From: Planctomycetota bacterium
Lineage (GTDB): Bacteria; Planctomycetota; GCA-002687715; DRQF01
Direction of reading: 5' to 3'
Length of the DNA stretch: 10,076 nt
Assembly: GCA_027001995.1 (NCBI GenBank)
Contig: JALTLO010000175.1
Coordinates: forward strand, 1-10,076
The translations under genes were made by a program, and so were the position numbers. Within the stretch, counting starts at the first letter, position 1; each line of letters starts with the position of its first letter. Of this stretch, positions 2-9,857 are shown piece by piece. The notes beneath the pieces are model-generated. The model worked only from the letters and a program-made list of their open reading frames with translations, was not told the origin of the DNA and ran no database searches.

Positions 2-1012
2 CTCTATACCGTGCCCGGACAGGTATATTACAACTCCACCCGCAAACTGGTTCTTCGGGGTGCAGATGGGGTGATCTTTGTTGCCGACTCCCAGACATCC
101 AAGCTCGAAGAGAACGTTGAGTCCATCGAGAACTTGGAAGAATGTCTGCAAGAGCAGGGAAGATCTCTGAGCGAGATGCCTCATGTCATTCAGTTCAACA
201 AGCGTGACTTAGACGACATCATGACGGTTGAGGAGTTAACGGAACAACTCAATCGCCATGGAGCTCCATGTTTGGAAGCCATGGCTGCCAGTGGCGAAGG
301 TGTCTTAGAGACTTTCAAAGCGTTGGCTGCCATGATGCTTGAAAAAGTGAAGGCTATGTCAACGGAGAGTGCGGCGAAACCCAGTGCAGGCAAATCGTCG
401 GGCAATGGGAAGGCAAGAGTGCAACCCATTCCTCTGACAGATAGCCAGAAACTACAAGGGGGAATCGCCGCTACCCCAGAGCGAGCTCAGCCCTTGGTTA
501 AGCTGTCGAATACACCTATCGATACTCTGCCCAAAGAGCCAGCTCGCCCAGCGGGATTTGAATCAACCTCGCTTACTCAACCGGCCCCCCCAGCGGAGGT
601 CCGACCAGCAGCGAGCTTGTCATCTCCGGAGCCCGTTGCCAGTGCGAGAAACCCCGCCCCAGCTCCTCAGGAGACGGAACCGTCACCAGGACAACAACCT
701 CAATCTTTATCGCCGACTCCGAGTTCTGCTCCAGCGCCAGCCGCCGCACTGGCCATGGAAACTGCGGCCCCAGAAGCAGCGGTTGCCACGATGGAGACCG
801 TTAAGCCTTCCATCCGCGAACCTCGTAGTGAGAAAAACCCCCGGCGTGTGCGCCGGGGTGTGACCTCCGGGGCCATGCAGATTATGGGTGAAGGCATGAT
901 GATTTCTTCATCCTCTCGGCGCCGAGGAGGTGACGGAAAGATATTTTGGGCCTTAGGCCTTCTTGTCCTGGGTGCCGCCGCAGCCGCGGGCTGGTACTAC
1001 TTCCTCAGATAA
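2..1012 (+). CDS. mglA: MglA-family small Ras-like GTPase (5' end outside window) with long Pro/Ala-rich C-terminal extension and terminal transmembrane helix
   Basis: Frame is open from position 2: LYTVPGQVYYNSTRKLVLRGADGVIFVADSQ (the MglA-type TVPGQ G3 motif), QFNKRDL (G4) and EAMA..GEGV (G5 region). The P-loop lies upstream of the window. A low-complexity P/A/S/E linker follows, then RRRGGDGK-IFWALGLLVLGAAAAAGWYYFLR-stop. Confidence 0.9.
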   Translation, partial: LYTVPGQVYYNSTRKLVLRGADGVIFVADSQTSKLEENVESIENLEECLQEQGRSLSEMPHVIQFNKRDLDDIMTVEELTEQLNRHGAPCLEAMAASGEGVLETFKALAAMMLEKVKAMSTESAAKPSAGKSSGNGKARVQPIPLTDSQKLQGGIAATPERAQPLVKLSNTPIDTLPKEPARPAGFESTSLTQPAPPAEVRPAASLSSPEPVASARNPAPAPQETEPSPGQQPQSLSPTPSSAPAPAAALAMETAAPEAAVATMETVKPSIREPRSEKNPRRVRRGVTSGAMQIMGEGMMISSSSRRRGGDGKIFWALGLLVLGAAAAAGWYYFLR

Positions 1013-1044: not shown

Positions 1045-1554
1045 ATGAATGACAGCCAAAAACTAAAAGACAACCGCATGGTCTTCTACGAAGACGACAT
1101 TGAAGGCATGGTGAAAGTTCTTAAGGAGCTCAATCACATGTCAGGTGCCAAGTGCTCCCTTCTGATCGATAAAGAAGGCCACATGGTTGCTAAAGAGGGG
1201 GCGGTTCGTTCTTTCGACACCGATTCTCTTTCTGCCTTGGTGGCAGGCTCGTTTGCCGCTACCCGCGAAATGGCGCGGATGGTGGGAGAAGACGAGTTCT
1301 CGGTCATGTTCCATCAAGGCCAACGTGACAATCTGCAACTGACTTTGATTGATGATCGCACCATCCTGACGGTCATTTTTGATGACCAGACTCAACTGGG
1401 GATGATTCGTCTCTATACGGCAGAAGCCGCCAAGAAGCTCATGGAGTTGTTCGAGGCTTCCCGTAGTTCGAATTCGGACCGTCCCGGCCTGGAACTCGAC
1501 AACGATTTCGCCACCGCTGGCAAAGCCAACTTGGACGACGTCTTCGGCGTTTAG
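1045..1554 (+). CDS. mglB: MglB / Roadblock-LC7 domain protein (GAP partner of MglA)
   Basis: ATG at 1045 is preceded by AAGGA at 1031-1035; the 946 start in the ORF track overlaps mglA and is unlikely. Sequence MVFYEDD..AKCSLLIDKEGH..DTDSLSALVAGSFAATREMARMVGEDEFSVMFHQG..LTVIFDDQTQLGMIRL closely follows the Myxococcus MglB pattern, and the acidic C-terminal helix is present (NLDDVFGV). Confidence 0.9.
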   Translation: MNDSQKLKDNRMVFYEDDIEGMVKVLKELNHMSGAKCSLLIDKEGHMVAKEGAVRSFDTDSLSALVAGSFAATREMARMVGEDEFSVMFHQGQRDNLQLTLIDDRTILTVIFDDQTQLGMIRLYTAEAAKKLMELFEASRSSNSDRPGLELDNDFATAGKANLDDVFGV

Positions 1555-3622: not shown

Positions 3623-3712
3623 GGTGTAGGATTTCACTGGACTTCCTCGTGCTCATCAAACTTGGTTAGCCAAGGGGCTCATTTTCGAGTTTCCAAAACT
3701 CATTGGACAATC

Positions 3713-4291
3713 ATGGACGACTGGGATCTTCTTCAATCGAGTCAAGAAGGCGGCAAGGCCTACGAGGAAATCGTAGGTAAGCACTACCAGTCTGCTTTTC
3801 TCTTCGCTCGGCAAATTTTGGGTGATGATCACCGGGCCGAAGATGTGGTGCAAAAGGCGTTTGTCAACATTTACGTCGCAAGAGATCGAATGGAGCGCCG
3901 GGCAAAATTCAGGACCTTCTTGTTTCGTGTTGTCACCAATTTGGCCCTCAATGAACTCAAACGTAAGAAACCCCATCCATCCCTCTCAGAAGTTCATCCC
4001 GACCAAGACGGCGGTATAGGATCGAGCTTCTCAGACCCATCTACTAAGTCACCCCAAGCGCACCTCGAATCCCAGGAGCTGGGACAGATGATTGATGCGG
4101 CCCTCCAAAAACTACCCCCTAAGCATCGGGCTGCTCTGTATCTTCGGGAATACCAGCAATTGACCTACGCACGCATCGCGGAGGTCTTGGAAGCATCCAT
4201 GAACGAAGTGAAAATCTGGATTCACCGGGGCCGGAGCGCTTTGCAAGAGAACCTAAAACCCTATCTGGACCGAGGCGAGAGTATCTCATGA
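3713..4291 (+). CDS. ECF (sigma-70 group 4) RNA polymerase sigma factor
   Basis: Region 2 AYEEIVGKH..AEDVVQKAFVNIY..FRTFLFRVVTNLALNELKR; region 4 ALQKLPPKHRAALYLREYQQLTYARIAEVLEASMNEVKIWIHRGRSAL. ATG 3713 (MDDWDLL) gives a typical ECF N-terminus; upstream TTG at 3662 is less likely. Confidence 0.93.
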   Translation: MDDWDLLQSSQEGGKAYEEIVGKHYQSAFLFARQILGDDHRAEDVVQKAFVNIYVARDRMERRAKFRTFLFRVVTNLALNELKRKKPHPSLSEVHPDQDGGIGSSFSDPSTKSPQAHLESQELGQMIDAALQKLPPKHRAALYLREYQQLTYARIAEVLEASMNEVKIWIHRGRSALQENLKPYLDRGESIS

Positions 4292-5283
4292 GCGAAGCAG
4301 AGATAGATCTTCAATTGAACCTCTATTTGGATGGCGAGCTGCCGGACGACCAGAAAGCAGCCCTGGAGGAGCAGCTTTCAGCTTCTCCTGAGCTCAGAGA
4401 GCGCATGGAACGGTTGCGCCGAGCTAGCAAGGAACTGCAAAACTTTTTCACTGATTCTCAAATGATTCACGCAGCCAGCGAAACGGATAGAGACATGGTT
4501 GTGGAGAGAATCGTTCGGGAGAGCACAATGGAAGCAAGACGCAGTGGGATTGCAGGGGCCAACAAAAAGAAACCCTCGTATATCCTGGGGGGCAGCCTCG
4601 CCATTGCCGCAATCGCCGCCCTTTTCCTCTTGATTAGAGCCTGGGTCACCAGCGGCCCGGAGCCTACCCAATTGATCGAAGGAGCAAAGCGATCCATGCT
4701 TCAGGAGTACATGGAGGCCGAGGTCTATGTACCCAGTTTTGTCGCCCTGGTTCGCGAATTCAATCCCACTGGCTCTGACATCATTCCCAACACCCGTTGC
4801 CGCCTCAGAACCGGCCCCCAAGGACGATTCCATGTCTTCCTCACCGATGGCGACGACGGTACACCTTTGGCCCATATCGGATTCGACGGAAAACAGGGCT
4901 ATGTTTGGCGTAAAGATGACGACAAGGCCCAGATCTTAAGCCTGGAAGAAGTCCGAAAGCACCCCATTGCCGCCGCTGCTCTGTGGAGTTTGGACTCCAT
5001 GTTGAACGCTGTCAACGAAGGAGCGGAGCATCCAGATGCCCTTGAGTTAGTGGGGCGGGTGAAAGACGAGGCCAACAAGAAGCTGTGGAAGGTGCGCTTG
5101 GGAGGCCCCAAGACCAGTTTTCGGGCAAGTTATTGGTTTGACAACGACGGCAAACTACGCCGAATTTCCGCAGGGCCTGTGCAATTTGATATGAAGGAGG
5201 GGGTAGAGCTTGGCCCTGATGACTTCAAGCTGGAGACTGTGCTGCCCGGTATGTCCGGCAAGAAGAGCTCACGAGACCTATGA
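4288..5283 (+). CDS. Single-pass membrane anti-sigma factor with degenerate zf-HC2-like N-domain and putative LolA/RseB-like extracytoplasmic domain
   Basis: ATGA overlap with the sigma stop codon. N-terminal LNLYLDGELPDDQKAALEEQLSASPELRERMERLR is an anti-sigma domain with no HxxxCxxC. KKK precedes a TM helix (about 4579-4635). The beta-rich C-domain contains IGFDGKQGYVWR. Confidence 0.8.
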   Translation: MSEAEIDLQLNLYLDGELPDDQKAALEEQLSASPELRERMERLRRASKELQNFFTDSQMIHAASETDRDMVVERIVRESTMEARRSGIAGANKKKPSYILGGSLAIAAIAALFLLIRAWVTSGPEPTQLIEGAKRSMLQEYMEAEVYVPSFVALVREFNPTGSDIIPNTRCRLRTGPQGRFHVFLTDGDDGTPLAHIGFDGKQGYVWRKDDDKAQILSLEEVRKHPIAAAALWSLDSMLNAVNEGAEHPDALELVGRVKDEANKKLWKVRLGGPKTSFRASYWFDNDGKLRRISAGPVQFDMKEGVELGPDDFKLETVLPGMSGKKSSRDL

Positions 5284-5618
5284 AACCCACTGATATGCCC
5301 TTAGAAGTTTGGGAAGCCTTATGCCGCAAGTGCGGCAAGTGCTGCACGGAAAAGATCGACATCGACGGGCGCATTTATTCTTCCAAGAAGTACTGCCGCT
5401 TCCTCGACACTCGCATCATGCAATGCACCGTCTATGAAGACCGCCACGTGGCAGAACCGGGTTGCATGTCCGTTCCTGATGGTGTCAAGGCCGGCATCTT
5501 CCCAGCCGACTGCCCCTACATCCAAGACGTCAAAGACTACGTTCCCACCATTGAAGAATGGGACAACCCCGCCATCGACCAAGCTATCCGAGAAATCCTC
5601 GGCGACGACGCCATCTAA
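5280..5618 (+). CDS. YcgN/UPF0260-like CxxCxxCC cysteine-cluster (Zn or Fe-S binding) protein
   Basis: WEALCRKCGKCC..K....YCRFLD....CTVYEDR....PGC.......PADCPY, with 8 Cys in the YcgN arrangement; ATGA overlap with the anti-sigma stop codon. Confidence 0.82.
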   Translation: MKPTDMPLEVWEALCRKCGKCCTEKIDIDGRIYSSKKYCRFLDTRIMQCTVYEDRHVAEPGCMSVPDGVKAGIFPADCPYIQDVKDYVPTIEEWDNPAIDQAIREILGDDAI

Positions 5619-5987: not shown

Positions 5988-6083
5988 CATCCTGAAAATC
6001 AAACGTCACGTGAACTGCCGGCGAAATGTTCAGCAGTTAGCTAGAAACCGTTGCGCTGACTTCTTCCTATGAAAGGACGAGCC

Positions 6084-8786
6084 GTGAAACTCGAGTTGAT
6101 TCTAACCCCGGTTGGTCATCTACGTTTCCAACAAGACGATGGGAACGGAGATGAAAGTGACAAAGGATGGATTCGCCGGGTTGCGGCTGCTTTTTCCGAA
6201 TCTTCCTCCGAAGGACTCTTTGCCCTTGCTGCCGCACGGCCAGACATGCTGTTGCCCCCCTCCCTTGTCTTTTGGCGGAGCTTTGCGAGCCGCTATCTGA
6301 CTGAACTTTGCCGGACACCAGAACTTGGCGACGGCCAGTTGCACCCGATCAAGACTCCGAACGATGCCGACATCGAGTCGATCCTGGTATCGGCCCCCCC
6401 ACTGCTCGGTGGAGAATACTTGACCGCCGAGGTCATTTGCGCCTTGTGGAGAGATTTGGACACGTGGCTGGGCGCAGAAGTCGCGGCTTCAAATGACAAT
6501 CTGGCCCAGTGGCTCAAGAAGCACGCCGCCATGTGGCATCAGGTCGGTCGGGTTTGTTTTCATCTTGCAGAAAACAAGAATGACTCCGGGTACCCTTTCG
6601 CTTTTCTGGCGACCTATACACCTCGCCTTTCCAAGGGGGGGCGCTTGCAATACCAGCCTCTCGGAAAGGCCTTACAAGAATACGCAGGTGCCCGAAACAA
6701 ACAGGCCTTGGTCAATTTGCTTTCTCCGGTGCAACGGGCGGCAGACAAGATCGATTTCGTCAAGAAGCTTGTCGAATCGGGCGACGTGTTTCACCCATTG
6801 GCGTGGACCCCGGATGAAGCTTATTTGTTACTGAAGAACGTGCAATTACTCGAGGAAAGTGGTCTTCTGGTTCGACTTCCCGACTGGTGGCGTAAACGTC
6901 CGCGGCCACGAGTGTCAGTGACCATTGGTGGCACCAAGAAGCGAAGCCGTTTTAACACCAATGCCATGTTGGACTTCAAGATTGGCTATGCCTTGGGCAA
7001 TGAAAGTCTGACCGAGAAAGAATGGCGCAAAATCATGGAATCGGCTGACGGTCTTGCTTTCGTGAAAGGACAGTGGATCGAGGTCGACCGCGAAAAACTC
7101 TCTCAGGCGCTTGCACACTGGAAGAATGTAGAAGCCGCCAACGGGGCAGGGGTTTCATTCAATGAGGGCATGCGGCTTCTTGCGGGTGCACCAGCAAAAC
7201 TCAAGGCGGAGGGGTCGCTTGGTGAAGAAGAACAGGCGTGGTCATCGCTAAAAGCAGGCAAGTGGCTTTCGGAACTTGTTTCAAACCTGCGCGATCCATC
7301 AAAGTCAAATAGCCGAGGTCCCAGCAAGAACCTTCATGGGACTCTTCGACCCTACCAGGAAATCGGCCACAAGTGGCTTTGGCTCTTGACGAATCTCGGA
7401 TTGGGCGCCTGTCTTGCCGATGACATGGGATTAGGAAAGACCATCCAAATGATATCCCTGTTGTTGACAATGAAAGAAGAACGAAAAGCGCAAAGCAAGC
7501 CATCTTTACTGGTGCTTCCTGCGTCTCTTCTCTCCAATTGGAAAGCAGAGCTAAGAAAGTTTGCACCGACGATCGAGGCCAGCTTCGTCCATCCGTCAGA
7601 AATGGACAAGGCCAATCTGATGAAGATAGGTGAACAGTCGGGCAAAATGCTCAAGAGCACCGATGTCGTTGTGACCACCTACGGCATGCTGCTCAGGCAG
7701 AACTGGTTACTCGACTTGAAGTGGCGGCTGGTGATCTTGGACGAGGCACAGGCCATCAAGAATCCAGCTTCCCGCCAAACGAAGGCAGTCAAGAAACTGA
7801 ATTCCGAATCCCGAATCGCGCTGACCGGAACGCCGGTCGAAAATCGACTCTCTGATTTGTGGTCCCTGTTTGATTTTCTCTGTCCAGGTCTTTTGGGTTC
7901 GGCCGCAACATTCAAGAAATTCGTGAAGACTTTGGAAGCCCGGCATCATGATCAGTACGCCCCCCTGAGAAATCTGGTCAGGCCCTATGTCTTGAGGCGC
8001 CTTAAGACTGATAAGAGCATCATCACCGATCTTCCCGACAAAACAGAGGTGAAGGCATTTTGCGGCTTGGCCAAAAAACAGGCGGTCCTCTATGCCAAGT
8101 CCGTGGGAGAGCTCGGTGCGGAGCTTGACGGACTTGATGGCATGAGCCGTCGCGGCCTAGTCCTTGCCTACCTCATGAGATTCAAACAGATCTGTAACCA
8201 CCCCAGTCAGTTCCTTGGCGATGGAGACTATGATCCGAAAGACAGCGGCAAGTTTGAACGACTTCGTTCGATCTGTGAAGAAATCGCTTCCCGCCAAGAG
8301 AAGGTTTTGGTGTTCACTCAGTTTCGCGAGATGACCGAACCGATTGCATCGTTCCTTGGCAATGTTTTTGGCCGTGATGGCCTCATTCTGCATGGCGGAA
8401 CAGCAGTCAAGAAACGCAAGAGCTTGATCGATCAGTTTCAAAGAGAGGGTGGCCCGCCCTTCTTCGTTCTCTCACTCAAGGCCGGCGGCACAGGTCTTAC
8501 TTTGACCGCAGCATCGCATGTGATACATTTCGACCGATGGTGGAATCCAGCTGTCGAAAACCAAGCCACCGACAGGGCTTTTCGTATCGGACAGCACCGA
8601 AACGTCGTAGTCCACAAATTCATCGCTCGCGGAACGGTCGAGGAAAAGATTGACGCCCTGATCGAAGACAAGAGCAACCTCGCCGACGATATTCTGAAGG
8701 CCGGGGCAGAATCCAAGTTGACCGAGATGAGCAACGAGGAGCTACTCAAGATAGTCGCCCTCGATGTCAACAGAGCAACAGCATAG
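6084..8786 (+). CDS. SNF2-family (SF2) helicase/ATPase, SWIM-partnered type
   Basis: LRPYQ (Q motif), CLADDMGLGKT (I), ILDEAQAIKN (II), ALTGTPVENRL (III), LVFTQF (IV), SLKAGGTGLTLT (V), WWNPAVENQATDRAFRIGQ (VI). GTG 6084 has AAGGA 6 nt upstream; ATG 6069 is the alternative start. Confidence 0.95.
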   Translation: MKLELILTPVGHLRFQQDDGNGDESDKGWIRRVAAAFSESSSEGLFALAAARPDMLLPPSLVFWRSFASRYLTELCRTPELGDGQLHPIKTPNDADIESILVSAPPLLGGEYLTAEVICALWRDLDTWLGAEVAASNDNLAQWLKKHAAMWHQVGRVCFHLAENKNDSGYPFAFLATYTPRLSKGGRLQYQPLGKALQEYAGARNKQALVNLLSPVQRAADKIDFVKKLVESGDVFHPLAWTPDEAYLLLKNVQLLEESGLLVRLPDWWRKRPRPRVSVTIGGTKKRSRFNTNAMLDFKIGYALGNESLTEKEWRKIMESADGLAFVKGQWIEVDREKLSQALAHWKNVEAANGAGVSFNEGMRLLAGAPAKLKAEGSLGEEEQAWSSLKAGKWLSELVSNLRDPSKSNSRGPSKNLHGTLRPYQEIGHKWLWLLTNLGLGACLADDMGLGKTIQMISLLLTMKEERKAQSKPSLLVLPASLLSNWKAELRKFAPTIEASFVHPSEMDKANLMKIGEQSGKMLKSTDVVVTTYGMLLRQNWLLDLKWRLVILDEAQAIKNPASRQTKAVKKLNSESRIALTGTPVENRLSDLWSLFDFLCPGLLGSAATFKKFVKTLEARHHDQYAPLRNLVRPYVLRRLKTDKSIITDLPDKTEVKAFCGLAKKQAVLYAKSVGELGAELDGLDGMSRRGLVLAYLMRFKQICNHPSQFLGDGDYDPKDSGKFERLRSICEEIASRQEKVLVFTQFREMTEPIASFLGNVFGRDGLILHGGTAVKKRKSLIDQFQREGGPPFFVLSLKAGGTGLTLTAASHVIHFDRWWNPAVENQATDRAFRIGQHRNVVVHKFIARGTVEEKIDALIEDKSNLADDILKAGAESKLTEMSNEELLKIVALDVNRATA

Positions 8787-8798
8787 GAAGCACAGAAG

Positions 8799-9857
8799 AT
8801 GAGCAGGAATGACAATTGGAAACCCTATGTTTCGGTTGCGAAGCGTCGCGCTCGTGCTGCGAAGCAGATGGCTAAGTTACGAAAAAAAGGACTCGACGTT
8901 CAGCCAGTAGAGATTGAGGGTCGTAAAATCGCTCGAACATTCTGGGGCGAAGCTTGGTGCGAGCACTTGGAGTCATTCAGCGATTACGAAAACCGCCTGC
9001 CTCGGGGGCGGACCTATGTCCGCAATGGTTCTGTATGCCACCTTGCCGTGAGCCAGGGCGAAGTCAACGCCATGGTCAATGGCTCAAGACTCTACAACGT
9101 AAAGATAGAAATCAAGACGCTTGCCAAGAAGAAATGGCAGAGGCTCAAAGAACAATGTAGCGGAGAAATTGGCTCGCTTATCGAGCTTCTTCAAGGCCGT
9201 TTGTCGAAAAACGTGATGCGAGTCGTCACCGACAGCCAGAAGGGTTTGTTCCCTCATCCCAAGGAAATCGGTTTGTCTTGCAATTGCCCTGACTGGGCTA
9301 CTATGTGTAAACACGTGGCGGCAGTCCTCTATGGCGTGGGCGCACGACTTGATGAAAAACCGGAGTTGCTGTTTCGCTTGCGAGGCGTTGACCAGAATGA
9401 ATTGATCGGCGCTGGCATTGATGTGAAGAGTGCTACGGAAAAAGCGAGGGGCGGTCGCAGACGCATCGCGGATGACGCTTTGGCCGGCGTTTTCGGCATC
9501 GATTTGCCAGACAATGAAAATCTAACTCAGCCCAAGCCCCGAGGGCGCCCGAAGACAAAGAAAGTGCCCAAGTCCAAGAAGGCGTCGGCCCCACGCAAGA
9601 AGGCCAAAAAAGTATCGCCTCGAACGGCTCAAAAATCTGGCCCAATTACCGGAAAGTCCATCACCAATTTGCGCGAGAAATTTGCCATGACAAAGAGCGA
9701 ATTCGCCATGTTGCTTGATGTCAGTGGATCCACCATTGGAAGCTGGGAAAAGAAAGCAAGCAAAACGCTGAGGCTTCAGCCTCGTTCTCTCGAAGCCTGG
9801 ACTTCAGCCAAGAAACTGTCGAAACGTAAAGCGTGGGCGCAACTGAATAAACCATAG
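8799..9857 (+). CDS. SWIM zinc-finger protein with Lys-rich linker and C-terminal XRE/Cro-type HTH
   Basis: TFWGEAW..ENRLPRGRTYVRNGSV N-domain. SWIM CxC-x6-CxH: CNCPDWATMCKH (9279-9314), followed by LDEKPELLFRLRG. A K/R/P-rich linker leads to ITNLREKFAMTKSEFAMLLDVSGSTIGSWEK (HTH). The gene starts 12 bp after the SNF2 stop, with AGGAAG as RBS. Confidence 0.88.
   Translation: MSRNDNWKPYVSVAKRRARAAKQMAKLRKKGLDVQPVEIEGRKIARTFWGEAWCEHLESFSDYENRLPRGRTYVRNGSVCHLAVSQGEVNAMVNGSRLYNVKIEIKTLAKKKWQRLKEQCSGEIGSLIELLQGRLSKNVMRVVTDSQKGLFPHPKEIGLSCNCPDWATMCKHVAAVLYGVGARLDEKPELLFRLRGVDQNELIGAGIDVKSATEKARGGRRRIADDALAGVFGIDLPDNENLTQPKPRGRPKTKKVPKSKKASAPRKKAKKVSPRTAQKSGPITGKSITNLREKFAMTKSEFAMLLDVSGSTIGSWEKKASKTLRLQPRSLEAWTSAKKLSKRKAWAQLNKP

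Follow-up and report, generated by a model that had tools for sequence, protein, structure and literature searches.

The characterised bacterial MglA proteins are soluble GTPases which pattern cells by moving between the poles, and in the accessible part of a preprint on the archaeal GTPase ArcoA (10.64898/2026.07.23.738820) bacterial MglA is termed cytosolic. A C-terminal membrane extension of Ras-like GTPases has been proposed, in the available text of PMC10933270, to have arisen with the eukaryotes. As far as its text is accessible, the survey of PMC4316618 describes group 1 MglA as single-domain proteins of 150 to 240 amino acids, left out GTPases of more than 240 amino acids and records PATAN genes near some group 1 and group 5 mglA genes; its main text makes no mention of Planctomycetes. 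The term "Mgl" is absent from the main texts of PMC6906331 and 10.64898/2026.10.26.761892, the supplements of which may list such genes, and the available text of PMC11135422 mentions planctomycetes only for GYF proteins. Here we describe a planctomycetal mglA gene whose product continues beyond the G domain into a long linker and a predicted C-terminal transmembrane helix. Such a form is apparently undescribed, as no description of a transmembrane-anchored MglA was found in the literature searched, from which subscription papers were mostly excluded.

The window, i.e. the whole stretch of 10,076 nucleotides analysed, is the entire contig C175 of the source genome (G000). Its first frame (2-1012, plus strand) is open over 336 codons and closes with a TAA stop at 1010-1012; since the window begins at the contig end, mglA is truncated at its 5' side. 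The missing 75 codons are located at the end of contig C64 of the same genome (L002 8979-9221), where the terminal open frame of 81 codons encodes the N-terminal end of an MglA, G1 and the Asp-Arg-Thr motif included. The last 20 nucleotides of C64 are identical to the first 20 of the window, which is the sole such pair among 408 contig ends, and the tailed mglA therefore comprises 411 codons. The features of the locus are compiled in the table below. In the family of the source genome the P-loop reads GCGLGGKT (L002:8979-9221), with Cys at a position where other families have Pro.

Table. Features of the tailed mglA and the adjacent mglB gene (positions in nucleotides of the window).
Feature	Position	Strand	Basis
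mglA, 3' part, 336 of 411 codons	2..1012	+	open frame; overlap with C64
C-terminal half of the MglA G domain (G3 TVPGQ, G4 NKRD, last helix)	2..352	+	match to M. xanthus MglA
Pro/Ala/Ser/Thr-rich linker, about 196 amino acids, predicted disordered, fast-evolving core	353..940	+	composition; AlphaFold2; drop in identity
Basic patch RRVRR	842..856	+	sequence
Juxtamembrane motif, hydrophobic-Ser-Ser followed by an Arg cluster	896..940	+	conserved in relatives
Predicted C-terminal transmembrane helix, 22 uncharged residues, aromatic ends	941..1006	+	hydropathy; AlphaFold2
mglB, roadblock GAP orthologue including the C-terminal helix region	1045..1554	+	match to M. xanthus MglB

The G domain clearly belongs to MglA. 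Residues 1-117 of the window's frame (nt 2-352) correspond to positions 76-192 in MglA of M. xanthus (E 2e-36), and the complete G domain aligns without any gap to residues 4-192 of that protein (E 3e-66), the numbering being identical. G1 (GxGxxGKT) and Arg53 lie on C64, and G3 (TVPGQ, including Gln82) as well as G4 (NKxD) within the window; the intrinsic Arg53 and Gln82 have catalytic roles in MglA. Among the 126 proteins surveyed (see below) G1, [DE]RT and NKxD are present in all and TVPGQ in 125. In a fold search with the model of the near-identical full-length database protein P0004, the top 14 matches are MglA structures (compared with PDB entries 6H17, 5YMX, 6IZW and 3T12 from M. xanthus and Thermus thermophilus), the identity amounting to 49-54% for MglA versus 16-22% for Ras and Rab. 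Hence sequence and fold are both closest to M. xanthus-type MglA, in agreement with the assignment made by an earlier sequence-only reading of the window. At 411 amino acids, linker and tail included, the protein lies outside the size range of group 1 (PMC4316618, available text) and, judged by its sequence, is an extended variant of this group.

Membrane segments were judged by hydropathy, and disorder and helix formation by hydropathy together with AlphaFold2. The linker comprises residues 118-313, and its stretch from residue 121 to 270 contains 28 Ala, 27 Pro, 18 Ser and 12 Thr among 150 residues. The AlphaFold2 model of P0004, calculated with 43 sequences, reveals a G domain ending at residue 200, coil over 201-391 (linker pLDDT 39-62) and a helix over 392-414 (pLDDT 82-92). 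In ten more distant relatives the identity is 73-85% within the G domain, 19-46% within the linker core and 39-83% within the terminal helix. A second basic patch, RRRGGDGK, is found at nt 917-940. The juxtamembrane motif is 80-100% identical in the six closest relatives, and its hydrophobic-Ser-Ser pattern occurs in 46 of 50 proteins of the subclade to which the source gene belongs. The terminal helix, followed by one Arg and the stop codon, shows a mean Kyte-Doolittle hydropathy of 1.75; it is thus moderately hydrophobic as well as rich in Ala and Gly, which counts against an anchor. Upon shuffling of the tail, a 19-residue window of at least 1.7 arises within 12 residues of the end in 10 of 10,000 cases and at any position in 145 of 10,000. 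The Pro/Ala/Ser linker, basic patches and hydrophobic C-terminal helix which the sequence-only reading had proposed are all present according to sequence, composition, hydropathy and AlphaFold2.

The named relatives of the protein are Planctomycetota, and in a search of the ESM Atlas the Planctomycetota clusters of the protein itself rank first. We surveyed 221 Planctomycetota genomes using the G domain alone as query (threshold E 1e-30) and obtained an MglA match in 129 of them. From 125 of the 128 genomes other than the source the best locus was taken (G010, G130 and G136 were left out, G059 entered twice), which yielded 126 rows; hydropathy divides these into 79 tail anchors from 39 families, 24 proteins from 8 families with a transmembrane segment plus a longer outer tail, 16 proteins cut by a contig end, four long proteins without transmembrane segment and three short ones. 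Of 110 complete best hits, 103 thus have a called C-terminal membrane segment, 79 of them as strict tail anchors, and the linker and terminal helix prove to be conserved; the call for L154 (G037) is probably false, with a hydropathy of 1.66 at 204 residues before the end, and L123 and L100 contain runs of N. An earlier count of 111 out of 116 was discarded in favour of the survey with the G domain only, since it was biased by a length filter of 220-702 amino acids and a full-length query; in addition, five of 121 rows lacking the NKxD pattern used had been dropped from it.

The linkers of the 79 tail anchors are 69 to 289 residues long and consist of 23% Ala and 20% Pro. All but one of these tails (78 of 79) harbour an uncharged run of at least 18 residues. 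Compared with the C-terminal side, 59 of the 79 tails carry a higher net charge on the N-terminal side of the helix, 14 the same and six a lower one, a bias which by sequence bears out the positive-inside, cytoplasm-facing orientation claimed previously. In none of the 126 proteins does an N-terminal hydrophobic stretch occur, the maximum 15-residue hydropathy within the first 35 residues being 0.91. The protein therefore displays the sequence hallmarks of a tail-anchored protein, namely one hydrophobic segment at the very C-terminus, neither signal peptide nor other transmembrane segment, and a predicted N-in orientation. These sequence features lend good support to a predicted membrane anchoring that leaves the G domain on the inner side. 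Tail-anchored proteins exist in E. coli (PMC6794478, available text), and YidC is present in the source genome.

Four of the seven complete proteins without transmembrane segment (G029, G067, G092 and G030) end in a basic amphipathic helix, which is reached by 0, 1, 2 and 19 of 1000 shuffles, respectively; that of G041 is similar but not significant (172 of 1000). The appearance of these four ends in place of a transmembrane segment suggests selection for membrane attachment, and we presume them to be comparable to the membrane-targeting helix of MinD. Among the other complete proteins of this kind, G019 is the soluble paralogue and G101 contains runs of N. In L023, L028, L116, L125 and L133, which belong to the clade of the tailed forms, the transmembrane tail has given way to an amphipathic end that is short, basic and rich in Phe. 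In families f15 and f24 (L030, L142, L062, L069 and others) the transmembrane segment is followed by a low-complexity segment of 27-119 residues, which would lie outside the cytoplasmic membrane.

In a tree of G domains (60 rows, one per family and class) the tailed forms constitute one group (100/97), separate from the soluble paralogues and from a Nitrospirota MglA, with TM-less tails nested within it at at least two places; the tree contains four outgroup rows only and its bootstrap is not settled. L038, a short tail-less protein of 200 amino acids, falls within the tailed group, which counts against the anchor. With the G-domain query no MglA match was obtained in 92 of the 221 genomes, including all eleven of family f7 (0/11) and all sampled members of f35, f42, f44 and f55. 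These five families include most of the near-complete closed genomes, which may be why the tailed MglA has been overlooked.

Some neighbouring observations concern other MglA homologues. Expansions with up to 10 matches and open frames of 700-960 amino acids with MglA domains occur in G059, G030, G092, G042, G179, G194 and G149. The tail of a Nitrospirota MglA of about 301 amino acids (L037:5983-6903) ends in a basic-aromatic motif and may represent a further membrane attachment of independent origin. At rank 7 of the ESM Atlas search stands a 364-amino-acid cluster which is commonest in Myxococcota (feature score 0.94, 10% Arf annotation) and may be regarded as a lead for a similar layout outside Planctomycetota.

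The tailed mglA is part of a conserved cluster in the order TPR-roadblock gene, roadblock gene, mglA and mglB, often joined by a gene for a DUF4388-TPR membrane protein. In the window mglB starts 32 nt past the end of mglA and its product matches M. xanthus MglB, C-terminal region included (E 2e-28, residues 11-167), scoring 103.6 bits, which is below the NCBIfam equivalog cut-off of 200. Upstream of mglA, contig C64 carries genes for a roadblock protein of 117 aa and a TPR protein of 393 aa. Counting those of the 107 complete tailed rows which have enough flank, mglB lies downstream of mglA at 97 of 104 loci; on the upstream side, 100 of 105 loci carry a roadblock gene and 87 of 92 the TPR gene, and the retrieved flank includes a DUF4388 gene at 54 of 68. 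The TPR protein terminates in a roadblock domain, which matches the small roadblock protein at 98.6% in hhalign (N-terminal control 0.06%). This TPR-roadblock protein was detected in 119 of 221 genomes, 118 of them with MglA; as related genomes are not independent of one another, this count does not amount to a statistical test. The DUF4388 protein, about 1080 amino acids long, matches DUF4388, TPR and PQQ-propeller profiles, and one central hydrophobic segment is seen in three of four complete copies and in 46 of 63 frames of at least 600 amino acids. In the source genome its gene is unlinked to mglA and split over C62 and C169; the two halves share no exact overlap, and their joining is inferred from profile coverage.

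Further downstream, the window contains an ECF sigma factor gene, a zinc-finger anti-sigma gene and a YcgN-like cysteine cluster gene (3662-5618), for which several genomes of the order show synteny behind mglB; the ECF sigma gene directly follows mglB in several genomes of this order. In the window a Fic/DUF4172 gene (1811-2917; region 1591-2917) is placed between mglB and the ECF sigma gene. Contigs covering 1591-1658 show a several-fold higher depth, which suggests a repeat at the boundary of a Fic/DUF4172 insertion. A gene pair for an SNF2 helicase (DUF3670) and a SWIM-HTH protein (6069-9857) gives weak ZorD/DrmD matches below the cut-offs.

Directly after the DUF4388 gene, C169 (L169:2054-2863) encodes a 269-amino-acid MglA-related protein (hhalign 96.8%) which has a predicted C-terminal transmembrane segment of its own. 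A Pfam search with it gave no relevant family; the top 14 fold matches of its model (pLDDT 80.6) are MglA, with E-values down to 2e-12. Since its G1 is altered and Gln82 and NKxD are absent, it is predicted to be inactive as a GTPase. Orthologues were detected at 17 loci, all in the source order and in 8 of 8 genomes of the source family; 16 of the 17 possess a C-terminal hydrophobic segment, 13 also match the DUF4388 profile, and the protein occurs as well in genomes without detected tailed MglA (G010, G015, G019, G020 and G022). Besides, the source genome encodes a soluble MglA paralogue of about 220 amino acids on C23 (L001:6486-7256, minus strand), with no roadblock gene found in the 9.9 kb analysed at this locus. 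Such a soluble paralogue is present in many genomes of the source order.

Considering these observations together, we regard it as reasonably probable that the protein is an MglA-family GTPase fixed in the cytoplasmic membrane by its C-terminal helix and acting as a switch which marks a membrane site. The single helix would be inserted as that of a tail-anchored protein, and the long flexible linker would hold the G domain in the cytoplasm. With such an anchor MglA would stay membrane-bound whichever nucleotide it carries, so that patterning would proceed via local GTP loading and lateral diffusion, not via release into the cytoplasm. MglB may serve as the GAP, the two other roadblock domains may form a second platform, and the DUF4388 protein could provide a membrane-spanning input or landmark. 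The output favoured by us would be the type IV pilus motor: a polarity role is inferred from the family, and pilus control would be the most likely function. In Synechocystis, PilB1 and PilC are binding partners of PATAN (DUF4388) domains (10.1101/2021.06.11.447907, available text), and in M. xanthus the TPR protein SgmX mediates the effect of MglA on pili (PMC11580455, available text). The source genome encodes PilT and PilB-like ATPases, the PilB-like matches being below the TIGR02538 cut-off. PilT is present in 129 of 129 MglA-positive genomes, but also in 214 of 221 overall and in 85 of the 92 without MglA match, and MreB in 215 of 221; both are too widespread in the phylum for their co-occurrence with MglA to be discriminating. 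Among the conserved neighbours of the tailed mglA there is no pil gene.

The same anchored switch might position envelope work such as the division site, budding or membrane invagination instead of pili, which appears possible to us albeit unlikely. The phylum Planctomycetota is not known to divide by means of FtsZ. This reading would accord with the conservation of one cluster over about 50 families, with the predicted transmembrane segment and outer PQQ/BamB-like propeller of the DUF4388 protein, and with the membrane-bound, Ras-like ArcoA, which positions division in Haloferax (10.64898/2026.07.23.738820, accessible part). Yet, since 92 of the 221 genomes, all those of f7 among them, are without an MglA match, it cannot be a general system of division; none of the conserved neighbours was recognised as a division or peptidoglycan gene, and MreB does not track the tailed MglA.

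More speculatively, and with little confidence, one may envisage that many uncultured Planctomycetota possess a self-contained membrane G-protein platform which gives identity to a membrane domain, for instance an invagination or a contact site, in a manner resembling Rab or Rag-Ragulator but independently reached. Its parts would be the integral-membrane MglA, the three kinds of roadblock domain, the membrane-spanning PATAN-TPR-propeller receptor and the order-specific, tail-anchored pseudo-GTPase.

We consider it improbable that the cluster is a non-polar transmembrane signalling unit in which, similar to a conservon, receptor, roadblocks and GTPase relay an outside signal to expression or to an enzyme. 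Such a unit would make sense of the receptor-like build of the DUF4388-TPR-TM-propeller protein and of the ECF sigma gene following mglB, and the logic of actinobacterial conservons is described in the available text of PMC4316618. The G domain, however, retains Arg53 and Gln82 of group 1 MglA, the cluster is devoid of a kinase, and the ECF sigma link is confined to three families.

That the terminal helix is a protein-binding helix or a cleavable sorting signal of the GlyGly-CTERM, PEP-CTERM or sortase type, and not a permanent anchor, is highly improbable. Sorting signals are composed of a motif, a transmembrane segment and a terminal basic cluster, in proteins with an N-terminal export signal. 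The moderate hydrophobicity of the window's helix would fit, and a GG pair, the sole partial match to sorting signals, precedes the helix in 23 of the 79 tails. Neither [VI]PEP nor LPxTG, however, occurs in any of the 79, at least two Lys or Arg among the last six residues are found in only one, there is no signal peptide, and in 24 rows a longer segment follows the helix.

Finally, a fusion of an ordinary MglA to unrelated sequence by read-through, frameshift or mis-assembly, for which speak the contig break within the gene and the lack of coverage of 425-458 by the contigs of run X1, is refuted by spanning contigs and relatives: at the level of DNA contigs, one contig of run X4, from an independent strain keeping the same frame, reaches from 1 to 1182, differing by 98 substitutions and one in-frame insertion of 12 nt, a contig of run X2 bridges 369-570, P0003 and P0004, two database proteins of 415 aa, show 91-96% identity over the G domain and 96% over the terminal helix, and the tail is present in 8 of 8 genomes of the source family. 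The contigs of X1, which may be the window's own source, match 1-424 and 459-1647 without differences.

The tailed MglA/MglB pair is thus a real, conserved and apparently new form of the known MglA/MglB switch, and Planctomycetota with the tailed MglA likely run a membrane-anchored form of a switch that is soluble in model species. With the MglA/MglB systems of M. xanthus and T. thermophilus it shares the G domain, the top fold match and an adjacent MglB orthologue; it differs by a length of about 411 versus about 200 amino acids, by linker and predicted transmembrane tail, by mglB being located downstream and by a cluster which adds two roadblock domains, a TPR protein and a DUF4388 membrane protein. 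Moving between poles would not be available to an anchored form, which would show a bacterial small GTPase patterning a membrane in two dimensions. As in the PATAN-linked group 1 and group 5 loci of PMC4316618 (available text), mglA and mglB are found near a PATAN-domain gene, but group 1 neighbourhoods are variable there and fixed in the Planctomycetota cluster. Like ArcoA of Haloferax volcanii, which is needed for patterning, the protein is a prokaryotic Ras-superfamily GTPase with its own membrane attachment; ArcoA differs in its N-terminal amphipathic helix, reversible binding and SepF-like partner, a roadblock partner not being mentioned in the accessible part of the preprint (10.64898/2026.07.23.738820).

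The presence of several roadblock domains alongside the GTPase is reminiscent of Rag/Ragulator, as far as its description was available. Miro has a C-terminal transmembrane tail preceded by two GTPase domains with EF-hands. The present model, in contrast, consists of one G domain, coil and helix, a second GTPase or EF-hand domain being absent from it. The sequence of G domain, variable linker and C-terminal anchor resembles that of Rab, whose anchor arises by prenylation (PMC10933270, available text). Of the parallel to Rab and Miro drawn in the earlier reading, the likeness in layout holds, whereas kinship does not: none of the 79 tails has a Cys for prenylation or geranylgeranylation among its last six residues, and the fold is closest to MglA. 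The parallel is one of analogy, not of membership. In a phylum known for unusual membranes, the tailed MglA would thereby represent a bacterial parallel to the C-terminal membrane extension of eukaryotic Ras-like GTPases.
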